DNA of 64,000 nucleotides from Dictyostelium discoideum (taxonomy: Eukaryota). The stretch spans positions 2,272,001 to 2,336,000 of the forward strand of contig CM000154.2 in the NCBI GenBank assembly GCA_000004695.1, read 5' to 3'. The notes beneath the pieces were generated by a model. It was not told where the DNA came from and made no database searches. It was given only the letters and a program-made list of their open reading frames with translations. The translations under genes and the position numbers were made by a program. Shown here piece by piece: positions 35,545 through 39,522 of the stretch (its first letter is position 1; each line of letters begins with the position of its first letter).

Positions 35545-36570
35545 ATGAAATTAAAATCAATAATAACTGAAATATTCGAAGTTATTGCTCCATTTTTTTT
35601 TAGTTTTTTAATTATTATATTTTCACCAATTTTAAAATTCATTTGTTTTAAAAAATCATTAAAATTTTCAAAACCTAAATCAATAGTTATTACAGGTACT
35701 TGTTCAGGTTTAGGAAGAGAATTAGCTTGTAAATATTCATCAATTTATAAAAATGATTTAACATTATTATTAATGGGAATGAATGAAGATAATTTAAATC
35801 AAGTAAAACAAATTTGTCAAAATCATGGATCAATTGTTTATACAATTATTGAAAATATTAAAAATAAAGAAAGAATGAAAAACCATTTAATTGAATTTCA
35901 TTCAAAACATCCAATTGATTTATTAATTGCAAATGCTGGTACAATTGAATGTAACTTTTATTTTTTTTTTATTTTTTTGTTTTTTTTTTTTTTTTATTAA
36001 CACACTTTAATTTTTTTTTTTTTTTTATTTTTAACATAAGCTCAACTTAAAGAATCGTTAAGTTTTGAAGATAAACTTCGTGAAATATCAGATACAAATA
36101 TTAATGGAATGTTAAATACAGTGTTACCTGTTATTCCATTAATGGAATCAAGAGGGTGTGGACAAATTGCAATAGTTTCATCATTGTCTAAGAATTTCTC
36201 GTCATTTTATGTTGGTTATAGTGCAAGTAAAGCATATATTTCAACATTTACTAAAATTTTAAGAAACAGATTACATGCATTAAATATTGGAGTTTATTTA
36301 ATTGAACCGGGTTATATTTCAACACCACTAACTCAAACATTAAAAATAAAACCTTTATTTGAAATTAAAATTGAAGATGCGGCACCAGAAATTATTGAAG
36401 GAATTGAAAATGGTAAATCATATATCTCATTCCCATTTAGTGCTCGATGTGTCTCAATTATTTCACATGCTGTTCCTGAATTTTTAACTGATGCCATTAA
36501 TTCATTTAATTCTTTCTTTTTTGGAAGATTTGATTTTCACAAAAAAGATATTAAAAATAAAATCAATTAA
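35545..36570 (+). CDS. Membrane-anchored short-chain dehydrogenase/reductase (SDR), paralog 1. Two exons: 35545..35950, 36041..36570
   Basis: N-terminal TM helix. IVITGTCSGLGRELA (TGxxxGxG). DLLIANAGTIE then donor GTAACT (phase 1), acceptor acataag. YSASKAY (YxxxK). Confidence 0.75.
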
Positions 36571-36665
36571 ATTTTTATTTTTTTTCGGAAATTTCAATTT
36601 TACTTTTTTTTTTTTGGGCGATGGGGTTAATTTGATAAAATTATAAAAATATCTTATTTTAATTG

Positions 36666-36697
<32 letters not shown>

Positions 36698-36882
36698 CAG
36701 AATTAAAAAAAAAGAACAAAGATATTTTTAATTTTTTATTTTTAATTTTTATTTTTTTTTTTATTTTTTTTTTTAATTTATGATTTCGCAATCACCTGAT
36801 TTTTAATTTTTTTTTTTTTTTAATTTTTTTAATTTTTTTTTTTTTTATAATCAATTCACATATTTATAAAAACAAAAAAAAA

Positions 36883-37311
36883 ATGATATTATTTGAAGAT
36901 GTTGTAAAATCATTTATTGATAATATGAATGATTATTTAATGATTATAGTTTCATTCTTTGGTAGTTTATTATTATTATTAATTGGACCATTTTTAAATT
37001 TAATTAATATTACAAAGAATAAAACTAAATTTGGTACACCAAAAACAATTGTTATCACTGGAAGTAATAGTGGTATGGGTAGAGGTATTGCAATTGCATA
37101 TGCAAAACCAGGTGTAACATTAGGTTTAATCGGTAGAAACATTGAAAGATTACAAGACGTTAAAAATGAATGTATTAAAAAAGGTGCCAATGTTATCATT
37201 GAATCAATTGATATCACTGATAAAGAAAAAATGAATAATTGGTTATTATCATTTGATAAAAAGTATACTGTTGATATTTTAATTGCAAATGCTGCTGTAA
37301 GTGAATGTATG

Positions 37312-37348
<37 letters not shown>

Positions 37349-38046
37349 AAACATTTTTACTAATTTTTACAAAAAGTAATGTTACCAAAAGAATTAAATT
37401 TTAATGATAGAACATATGAACTTACAAATATAAATGGTAATAACAATAATAATAATAATATTTTTTTTTTTTTTATAAACAATATGTTAATTTATTTTTT
37501 TTTTTTTTTTTTTTTTTTTTATTTTAATAATAAGTAATGGGTATGTTAAATACAGCATTACCATTAATTGAAAATTTTGAAAAAAGGGGTAATGGTCAAA
37601 TTGTTTTAGTATCAAGTTTAACTAGTTATTTGAATTTTGTATTACCAACTTATTGTGGATCAAAAGCATTTGTAACATCATTTGGATTAACATTAAGAAA
37701 TAGATTAAAGGATAGTGGTGTTGGTGTTTCAATTGTTGCACCTGGTTTTGTTGATACTCCAATGTCTGATTCATTGAAACAAGATTCATTACCATTCTCT
37801 GTTACACCAAATCAAGCTGCTACAATAATATTAGATGGTATTAGTAAGAATAAAGCTTTTATTGCTTTCTCATTACCAACTTTATTATTCACCTACTTTG
37901 TAAATATTATCCCACCAAATCTTAAAGATTCTTGGAATTATATAAGTACATTTTTCTTTAAACATCCAGAATTTAATCCTCCAAATACTAGTAATAGTAA
38001 TAGTAATAATACAGATTCTTCATCTTCAAAATTTAAAAAAAATTAA
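36883..38046 (+). CDS. Membrane-anchored SDR, paralog 2. Three exons: 36883..37306, 37377..37436, 37535..38046
   Basis: IVITGSNSGMGRGIA. ILIANAAVSE then donor GTATGT (phase 1). 60-nt micro-exon LMLPKELNFNDRTYELTNIN. Donor GTAATA, acceptor aataag. Exon 3 VMGMLNTALPLIENF...YCGSKAF. Confidence 0.7.
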
Positions 38047-38383
38047 ATTAAAAAATTAATATTATATTAATTATTTTTGATTTTTATAAACATTAAATAA
38101 AATAAGATGAAATAAAATATTTAAATTTAATAAGTGGTTATTATTTAGTTTTGAATTTTTTTTATTTTTTTTTATTTTAAAGATAATTTCGAACCTATTA
38201 ATAATTAGGTTTCCTTATTTTCATAATTTTTTTTTTTTTTTTTAATAATTAATTTAAATTTTATTTTTTTTTTTATTAATTTTGTTTTATTGTTTGATAA
38301 AAAAAAAAAAAAAATTTTATAAAGGGGTTAATATCAAAAAAAAAAAAAAAAAAAAAAACAATCATTTATCTGTGAAAATAAAG

Positions 38384-39522
38384 ATGGAATTATTTTGTTT
38401 TTTAAATTATGCAAATGATTTTCTTGTTTTATTTATGAATATAATAGGATCAATATTCATTTTAATAATTAGTCCAATTTTATATTTAATAAATTTAAAA
38501 AGAATTAAACAATTTAAAAAAGGAAAAAATATTGTTATTACAGGTAATATAAAAATAAAATTCTAAATAATAATAATAATTCTAAAATAATATTTTTAAA
38601 AAAATAGGTGCATCATCAGGATTAGGTGAATCATTAGCATTAAATTACTCAAAAAATGCAGGTGTAAAACTTGGATTAATTGGTAGGGATACTAATAGAT
38701 TACAAAAAGTTAAAGAAGAATGTTTAAAAAATGGTGCTGAATATGTTGAAATTGAATCAATTGATGTTTCAAATCAAAAAGATATGGAAAATTTTTTAAA
38801 TGATTTTAATAAAAGAATACCAATTGATATAATTTATGCAAATGCTGCTGTAAATGAATGTAATTATAATTTTTATTAATTAATTATTATTAATTATTAT
38901 TACCTCTACTAATATTTTTATTTTATAAATAGTGGTATTACCAAGAGAATTAAGTTTTACAGAAAGAGCAAATAAAATTGTTGATATTAATGTTTATGGA
39001 TTATTAAATACAGTTTTACCAATGATATCAATTTTTGAGAGTAGAAGTAGAGTTGTTAATAATAATAACAACAGTGGTGATGGTGGTGGTGGTGGTGGTC
39101 AAATTGTTTTAGTATCAAGTGTTGGACCAATGACAAATTTTGTATTTCCAACTTATAATGGTACAAAAGCATTTGTAACATCGTTTGGATTAACATTAAG
39201 AAATAGATTAATGGAACAAGGTATTGGTGTTAGTGTTGTTGTACCAGGTTATATTGAAACTCCAATGGCACATGTATTGAAACAAGAGAAATTAATGTTT
39301 TCTGTAACTCCTGAATATGCCGCTAGTAAAACAATTGAAGGTGTACAATTCAATAAAGGTTTAATCACATTCTCAAGATCAATTTATATGATGTCTGTTT
39401 TCTTTAGTTTATTTCCACCAAATTTTGCCAAAGATTCAATTGATTTCATATTATCCAAATTTATTAATTTCCCTGATCATAATAAACCAATGTCACCACA
39501 AGCAAATAAAAAAGTTGATTAA
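38384..39522 (+). CDS. Membrane-anchored SDR, paralog 3. Three exons: 38384..38543, 38608..38859, 38933..39522
   Basis: MELFCFLNYANDF... TM helix. IVITG then donor GTAATA (phase 1), acceptor aaaatag. ASSGLGESLA. IYANAAVNE then donor GTAATT (phase 1), acceptor taaatag. LVLPRELSF...YNGTKAF. Gly-rich insertion GDGGGGGG. The ORF-track start at 38932 is a GTG. Confidence 0.7.

Follow-up and report, generated by a model that had tools for sequence, protein, structure and literature searches.

Likely old tandem paralogs for membrane-anchored short-chain dehydrogenases/reductases in Dictyostelium discoideum, differing largely through apparent intron loss

When genes of one family stand in a row and differ in their introns, do they represent a recent multiplication with introns still being acquired, or old copies from which introns have gone missing? 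This question is raised by a locus on contig CM000154.2 of Dictyostelium discoideum (assembly GCA_000004695.1), within a stretch of 64,000 nucleotides (nt; positions 2,272,001 to 2,336,000 of the forward strand, hereafter the window, whose own numbering is used below). At 35545-39522, on the plus strand, three genes (g1, g2, and g3) encode short-chain dehydrogenase/reductase (SDR) proteins with an N-terminal membrane anchor. An initial inspection of the letters, here called the sequence-only reading, had described them as a young tandem triplication with ongoing intron gain or loss. The analysis presented here leads, with good confidence, to a different answer, namely that these are three annotated genes for single-pass N-anchored classical SDRs, that they are old tandem paralogs, and that the differences among their introns are largely due to old losses of an intron in the glycine motif, designated I-a.

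The gene models were obtained through three-frame translation of 35400-39700, followed by explicit splicing. One gene, g1 (DDB_G0289057 / Q54I23, annotated as "hypothetical protein"), is composed of exons 35545-35950 and 36041-36570 and encodes 311 amino acids (aa); g2 (XP_636412.2 / Q54I22, "short-chain dehydrogenase/reductase family protein") is composed of exons 36883-37306, 37377-37436, and 37535-38046 (331 aa); and g3 (XP_636413.1 / Q54I21, with the same label as g2) of exons 38384-38543, 38608-38859, and 38933-39522 (333 aa). The spliced translations are residue-for-residue identical to the RefSeq/UniProt proteins of D. discoideum AX4, and the reference annotation already contains the three genes with these same exons. 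The sequence-only reading had thus recognized three plus-strand genes and placed their outer limits exactly, the first ATG being at 35545 and the last stop codon ending at 39522. In a window of approximately 20% GC, with very AT-rich spacers and introns, the five introns of g1-g3 are all of the GT-AG type, all in phase 1, 64-98 nt long, and 5-11% GC, the exons being 24-26% GC. Each of the genes has its own ATG and its own TAA, the 312-nt and 337-nt spacers between the SDR genes are closed in all frames, and the units occur apart from one another in other species (D. firmibasis has no g1, and the D. purpureum gene of the g3 clade is on another contig), all of which provides indirect evidence for three separate genes rather than a single transcript.

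As to the age of the array, pairwise alignment of the three copies reveals protein identities of 37% (g1-g2), 36% (g1-g3), and 50% (g2-g3), contrary to a young age, along with nonsynonymous distances (dN) among the paralogs of 0.44-0.62. In a neighbor-joining (NJ) tree based on Kimura distances, with 200 bootstrap replicates, Dictyostelia are monophyletic (86.5% bootstrap), and the four family members of D. purpureum all fall within the clades of D. discoideum genes, g1 being joined by A and 159504 (86%), g2 by B (98%), and g3 by 8741 (98%). Since each clade includes a D. purpureum sequence, the duplications are older than the split of D. discoideum and D. purpureum. The gene order Arf-g1-g2-g3-271-aa gene-Erg28 is kept in D. 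citrinum and in D. dimigraforme, while the order in D. firmibasis is Arf-g2-g3, with nothing SDR-like between the Arf gene and g2. A further, unlinked paralog, g4 (P0024), was found only in the D. discoideum complex and is closest to g2 (47%). Overall, adjacency, co-orientation, homology, and a common intron support the sequence-only reading in that these are tandemly arrayed paralogs of N-anchored SDRs, and the comparisons above mark them as old members of a dictyostelid family with four representatives in D. discoideum.

The history of the introns can be followed on maps derived from exact spliced alignments. One intron, I-b, occurs in all three genes (35951-36040 in g1, GT-AG, 90 nt and 9% GC; 37307-37376 in g2, 70 nt; 38860-38932 in g3, 73 nt), in phase 1 after NA[AG]xxE and at the same alignment column, 146, just as had been noticed from the sequence. 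It is present in every group-4 gene examined, including that of P. violaceum, and absent from Heterostelium (H. album) and Cavenderia (C. fasciculata); in the simplest scenario, the gene from which the group-4 members descend already had it. Another intron, I-a, interrupts IVIT|G in phase 1 and is, within the array, specific to g3 (38544-38607, 64 nt, splitting TG|ASSGLG). The proposal that the second and third paralogs share this upstream intron fails, as the first exon of g2 is a single uninterrupted open reading frame (ORF) through TIVITGSNSGMG. Beyond D. discoideum, I-a is present in g3 of D. dimigraforme and in D. purpureum A, B, and 159504, and it is absent from D. firmibasis g3 (where the sequence is contiguous), from D. 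purpureum 8741, from P. violaceum, and from all g1, g2, and g4 genes of the D. discoideum complex. Thus g2 of D. purpureum has I-a, whereas g2 of D. discoideum does not. On the simplest view, I-a is ancestral to the Dictyostelium genes and has been lost repeatedly and precisely, in the array from g1 and g2. Intron turnover across the family is real, and on this view consists for the most part of loss of the ancestral intron in the glycine motif. The notion of ongoing gain or loss holds insofar as orthologs differ in I-a, but it does not extend to the structures of g1 and g2, which are fixed within the D. discoideum complex.

A third intron, I-c (37437-37534 in g2, 98 nt, phase 1), borders the 3' end of a micro-exon of 60 nt (37377-37436), which encodes (L)MLPKELNFNDRTYELTNIN and whose last full codon specifies the invariant Asn161 of the catalytic tetrad. 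The micro-exon had been noticed as unique to g2, and it is indeed located exactly there and is the only one in the array, but the unlinked g4 possesses one of 59 nt in the same place. I-c is present in g2 of all four species of the D. discoideum complex (phase 1, 60-nt exon) and in g4 (phase 0, 59-nt exon), and is absent from D. purpureum B (g2), from P. violaceum, and from g1 and g3. It either arose in the D. discoideum complex, in its g2 lineage, or was retained by that lineage alone, the simplest scenario being a single gain there after the split from D. purpureum, with g4 as a later dispersed duplicate of g2 that would have inherited I-c with a shift of 1 nt. When the D. discoideum g2 micro-exon is compared to those of three sister species, 60 of the 60 nt align without gaps at 92-98% identity, while the flanking introns, in the same comparison, show 45-68% identity and contain 6-61 gap columns; the 20 residues from the micro-exon also align gap-free to the intron-less paralogs and to bacterial homologs. 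Annotation and comparative evidence together argue that the g2 micro-exon is real. As both of its flanking introns are in phase 1, its skipping would leave the reading frame intact, but a skipped micro-exon would mean the deletion of the catalytic Asn161.

The micro-exons of g2 and g4 also present a candidate for intron sliding. The intron downstream of the g4 micro-exon (L005:5404-5637) is in phase 0 and is offset by exactly 1 nt from I-c of g2, which is in phase 1; the spliced junction, AAT GTA AT, is the same in both genes, with donor and acceptor each displaced by one base, and the acceptor of I-c in g2 is explicable by a single g-to-a change re-creating AG one base downstream. A genuine slide of 1 nt between the two paralogs is a possibility that we put forward tentatively, considering it somewhat doubtful. 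A parallel in the family is the 5-nt offset between the glycine-motif introns of the group 1/2 and the group 4 dictyostelids. The former, found in H. album and C. fasciculata (groups 2 and 1, respectively; L004:6162-6245 and L011:3168-3271), is an intron common to both species that interrupts the Ile codon of IVITG in phase 2, in genes that both lack the intron after NAxxxE, and we rejected its identification with the group-4 I-a, as it is located 5 nt upstream and differs in phase. An extra phase-0 intron is present in C. fasciculata directly after the catalytic YVASK. Some of the deposited gene models in other species also call for comment. In the 314-aa model of D. purpureum gene A (L001:6593-7696), the donor is a GT located 13 nt downstream, so that GMYHS is inserted into TGxxxGxG. 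With a GC-AG intron placed at the conserved position (6756-6828), the motif reads TGASSGIG again and the protein has 310 aa; probably, either this model is mis-annotated or the GC-AG intron is genuine. Two models of H. album appear to be faulty, one (P0031, L004, 403 aa) with six introns and tiny, dubious 3' exons, and the other (P0259, 561 aa, named "putative syntaxin 10") apparently representing an SDR fused to a neighboring gene.

The assignment of the three proteins to the classical SDRs is straightforward. They match the Pfam model PF00106 (adh_short) with 109.3 (g1), 125.7 (g2), and 100.6 bits (g3), with E values of 1e-28 to 2e-36, the gathering cutoff being 26.6 bits, and they possess TGTCSGLG, TGSNSGMG, and TGASSGLG, respectively, along with ANAG/ANAA, the N-S-Y-K tetrad, and PG. 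In an alignment of 47 family sequences, G60, G66, N161, S189, Y201, and K205 (g2 numbering) are invariant, and G84-R85 and P231-G232 are conserved at 90% or above. The N-terminal transmembrane (TM) helix, together with the TGxxxGxG, NA[AG], and YxxxK motifs, is thus found in all three proteins, as the sequence-only reading had stated. In g1, exon 1 encodes the anchor (aa 17-35, nt 35593-35649), TGTCSGLG, and NAGTIE, and exon 2 encodes the catalytic Asn, Ser, and YSASK and the C-terminal helices, up to and including the stop codon. In g2, exon 1 encodes the anchor (aa 19-37, nt 36937-36993) and the uninterrupted TGSNSGMG, and ends after NAAVSE, while exon 3, which includes the stop codon, encodes Ser189, Y201xxxK205, and PG, as well as a hydrophobic helix in the C-terminal part (aa 269-287) and a tail of low-complexity Ser/Asn sequence. 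In g3, exon 1 encodes the anchor (aa 14-32, nt 38423-38479) and ends within the Gly codon of IVITG, exon 2 continues from the remainder of the glycine motif to NAAVNE, and exon 3 runs to the stop codon and harbors an insert specific to g3 (approximately 39060-39100), in which AAT and GGT repeats encode poly-Asn/poly-Gly, NNNNNSGDGGGGGG, in a predicted loop ahead of the strand with the catalytic Ser. This insert has no counterpart in g1, g2, g4, or any other aligned homolog, and the length of the g3 protein varies among isolates of D. discoideum (333 versus 329 and 328 aa).

The overall architecture includes an N-terminal extension of approximately 45 residues, a Rossmann SDR core, and two amphipathic or hydrophobic C-terminal helices. 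The N-terminal hydrophobic 19-mers of g1-g3 have a mean Kyte-Doolittle value of 2.4-2.5 and are followed by a Lys/Arg-rich segment; the values are 2.3-2.7 for every dictyostelid member, and the bacterial homologs do not have the extension, starting at "TIVITGAS." In the AlphaFold2 model of g2, with a mean predicted local distance difference test score (pLDDT) of 92, residues 15-45 form a long helix at the N-terminus, residues 275-302 form C-terminal helices, and the Rossmann core displays the alternating β-α pattern; the top matches to the model in Foldseek are all SDR structures. Ahead of the TM helix the net charge amounts to 0 to -3, and behind it to +4 to +6, which by the positive-inside rule would place the catalytic domain in the cytosol. 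According to the coenzyme rules for classical SDRs, a basic residue after strand β2 signals a preference for NADP(H), and such a preference is suggested by the conserved Arg at this position. A lipophilic substrate, in turn, is suggested by the architecture in common with HSD17B13 and 11β-HSD1. The anchor would keep the enzyme in the membrane of the endoplasmic reticulum (ER) or of lipid droplets, the catalytic domain would face the cytosol, the C-terminal helices would dip into the membrane surface, and NADP(H) would be used to reduce or oxidize a carbonyl or a hydroxyl of such a substrate. Judging from sequence and analogy, the proteins are likely NADP(H)-dependent oxidoreductases acting on a lipophilic compound at the ER or lipid-droplet membrane.

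How close is the analogy? HSD17B13 and HSD17B11 (SDR16C, lipid-droplet/ER) and 11β-HSD1 resemble g1-g3 in overall architecture, with a classical SDR core between a hydrophobic N-terminal anchor and C-terminal helices; the hydrophobic N-terminal helix seen both in the sequence and in the g2 model may serve in membrane or lipid-droplet targeting, as does that of SDR16C. HSD17B13 is the best match in a profile search against the PDB (153.7 bits, nearly full length) and in Foldseek (E of 1e-18, template modeling score of approximately 0.65-0.8), where 11β-HSD1 comes next. However, HSD17B13 and 11β-HSD1 are only 19-27% identical to the Dictyostelium SDRs. Close kinship with SDR16C is not indicated, the identity being 22-27% and the margin of the profile match over the soluble yeast YMR226C (149 bits) being only about 4 bits, and in a single-sequence search of the PDB HSD17B13 reaches 62.7 bits, below the bacterial SDRs at 74 bits. 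The resemblance is thus in how these proteins work and not in family membership. Outside eukaryotes, the closest relatives by sequence (38-44% identity) are bacterial proteins of the PRK07024 type (NF005437; COG0300-like), which have the motifs TIVITGASxGxG, PGVTLGLIGR, and IAFPxxL...PP in common with the Dictyostelium SDRs but are approximately 255-262 aa long and devoid of the N-terminal TM extension; the PRK07024 family is itself uncharacterized. The DHRS7B/Ayr1-type acyl/alkyl-dihydroxyacetone phosphate (DHAP) reductases are likewise membrane-associated classical SDRs of lipid metabolism. In D. discoideum, however, alkyl-DHAP reductase is represented by two other SDRs, one with a C-terminal peroxisomal targeting signal of type 1 (PTS1), and a double knockout abolishes ether lipids (PMC13256971). 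A DHRS7B-like role was therefore rejected for g1-g3, as the published enzymes are products of other genes (PMC13256971), although the sequences were not compared directly. No PTS1 is found at the C-termini of g1-g4. None of the top PDB matches is a 3-ketoacyl-CoA reductase (KAR; HSD17B12/IFA38), though no comparison aimed at KAR was made.

A number of observations weigh against the reading preferred here, or at least against parts of it. The scenario of an ancestral I-a requires at least five independent losses, and parallel gains of I-a or gene conversion are conceivable alternatives, given bootstraps below 35% at the tree's deep nodes. In D. discoideum sensu stricto, g1 has GMN instead of the near-invariant GRN after β2 (35785-35793, Met for Arg), so its use of the cofactor may differ, the Arg being kept in g1 of D. 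cf. discoideum, D. citrinum, and D. dimigraforme. None of the NCBIfam subfamily models reaches its cutoff, the best one, NF005437, scoring 102-127 bits with g1-g4 versus an equivalog cutoff of 266 bits (even the closest bacterial match, P0033, scores just 169 bits). Within the literature collection searched, queries by gene and UniProt identifiers retrieved no paper.

The young tandem triplication, with introns now being gained, the g2 micro-exon as a recent and unique gain, and a second intron common to g2 and g3, can be defended on the grounds that the genes are adjacent, co-oriented, and homologous, with one intron position in common, and that orthologs in closely related species do differ in the presence of introns. 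Yet this reading has to contend with the identities of 36-50% and the paralog dN values, with the D. purpureum sequences nested within each of the g1, g2, and g3 clades, with the synteny in the sister species, with the absence of the IVITG intron from g2, and with a micro-exon that is kept in g2 of four species and is also present in the unlinked g4; the low identity between the paralogs further argues against gene conversion mimicking orthology. We find a recent origin hardly credible. A different proposition concerns g1, which could be a decaying or non-enzymatic copy heading toward a pseudogene; its annotation is just "hypothetical protein." The ratio of nonsynonymous to synonymous substitutions (dN/dS) between orthologs is 0.36 for g1, the highest of the trio, 0.09-0.14 for g2, and 0.14-0.25 for g3; the g1 proteins of sister species are only 72-73% identical, versus 93-94% for g2, and differ by approximately 6% even between two strains of D. 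discoideum; the gene is missing from D. firmibasis; and the near-invariant Arg after β2 is lost in D. discoideum strains. On the other hand, the ORF and the splice sites of g1 are intact in all the strains and species examined, dN/dS is well under 1, TGxxxGxG (SGxxxGxG in D. citrinum), the N-S-Y-K tetrad, and PG are retained, and the match to adh_short has an E value of 2e-31. Decay of g1 is thus unlikely, and all three genes are under purifying selection, g2 being the slow, conserved copy and g1 the fast and most relaxed one.

Yet another possibility is that a bacterial PRK07024-like SDR was transferred into the ancestor of the dictyostelids and then gained its anchor, every intron being in this case a gain. 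Word-indexed searches would seem to favor it, as, among the matches listed, every organism-named one outside the dictyostelids is bacterial, the rest being metagenomic sequences of approximately 250-280 aa, with 38-44% identity over the catalytic domain and the C-terminal helices. Motifs such as PGVTLGLIGR are common to both verbatim, and all the best NCBIfam models are bacterial. However, the databases are heavily biased toward bacteria, and an exhaustive HMMER search identifies the same N-terminal anchor in Cavenderia, in a second gene of Heterostelium, in Pyxidicula (Arcellinida), and in the unicellular Holozoa Capsaspora and Chromosphaera, the anchored relatives in the latter three scoring 140-184 bits, of the same order as the approximately 200 bits of the best anchor-less, presumably bacterial match. 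In the NJ tree, the anchor-less sequences of bacteria or of bacterial type nearly all group with one another, away from those with an anchor; one of them, P0272, pairs with an anchored metagenomic protein. On the evidence of the anchored eukaryotic relatives, from the exhaustive search and the tree, a dictyostelid-specific transfer from bacteria was rejected as the main explanation, and we consider it very unlikely.

The gene context of the bacterial homologs offers some further observations. In a Caballeronia species (L008:7001-14786), the homolog is located downstream of three glycosyltransferase genes and directly upstream of a gene for a sulfatase-family protein and one for a type I polyketide synthase exceeding 2500 aa, and this locus may represent a glycolipid or polyketide-lipid cluster. 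The homolog in Thiobacillus has, unlike that of Caballeronia, a context of capsule genes. With two loci of unrelated neighborhoods, the idea of deducing function from bacterial gene context was dropped.

The neighborhood in D. discoideum itself raises one more functional idea. Approximately 2.3 kb downstream of g3 there are two tandem genes of the Erg28 family (PF03694; approximately 41846-42492 and approximately 42656-43045, plus strand), and a tandem Erg28 pair is likewise called in D. citrinum and D. dimigraforme. ERG28 tethers the enzymes of sterol C-4 demethylation, including the SDR ERG27, and ERG27 has been reported as missing outside fungi and vertebrates (PMC2817430). The N-anchored SDR family could, in principle, include the Dictyostelium sterol C-3 ketoreductase, equivalent to ERG27 and reported as not identified in this organism (PMC2817430), but we give this idea very little credence, because the adjacency of SDR and Erg28 genes is not seen in D. 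purpureum, Heterostelium (H. album), or Cavenderia (C. fasciculata). On the other side of the array, approximately 500 nt upstream of g1, a gene for an Arf-family small GTPase (approximately 34270-35047, plus strand) contains at least one intron; it is syntenic in all the Dictyostelium species examined, but in D. purpureum its orientation relative to the SDR pair is inverted. Scans of the window for tRNA genes and Rfam families gave a single match, a tRNA-Asn (GTT) at 49010-49084 (plus strand), far from the SDR array.

In conclusion, the finding is in itself an ordinary one: tandem arrays of SDR paralogs are nothing unusual, and the genes had already been annotated with their exact exon structures. 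Its value is in correcting the reading of a young triplication, and in presenting a small, clean case of intron loss, and possibly of intron sliding, in a family of four members followed across the sequenced dictyostelids. The N-anchored SDR family, so far functionally uncharacterized, is common to some other amoebozoans and to unicellular holozoans, and its members may serve as a pool of candidates for the orphan membrane ketoreductase activities in the lipid, sterol, or polyketide metabolism of Dictyostelium.

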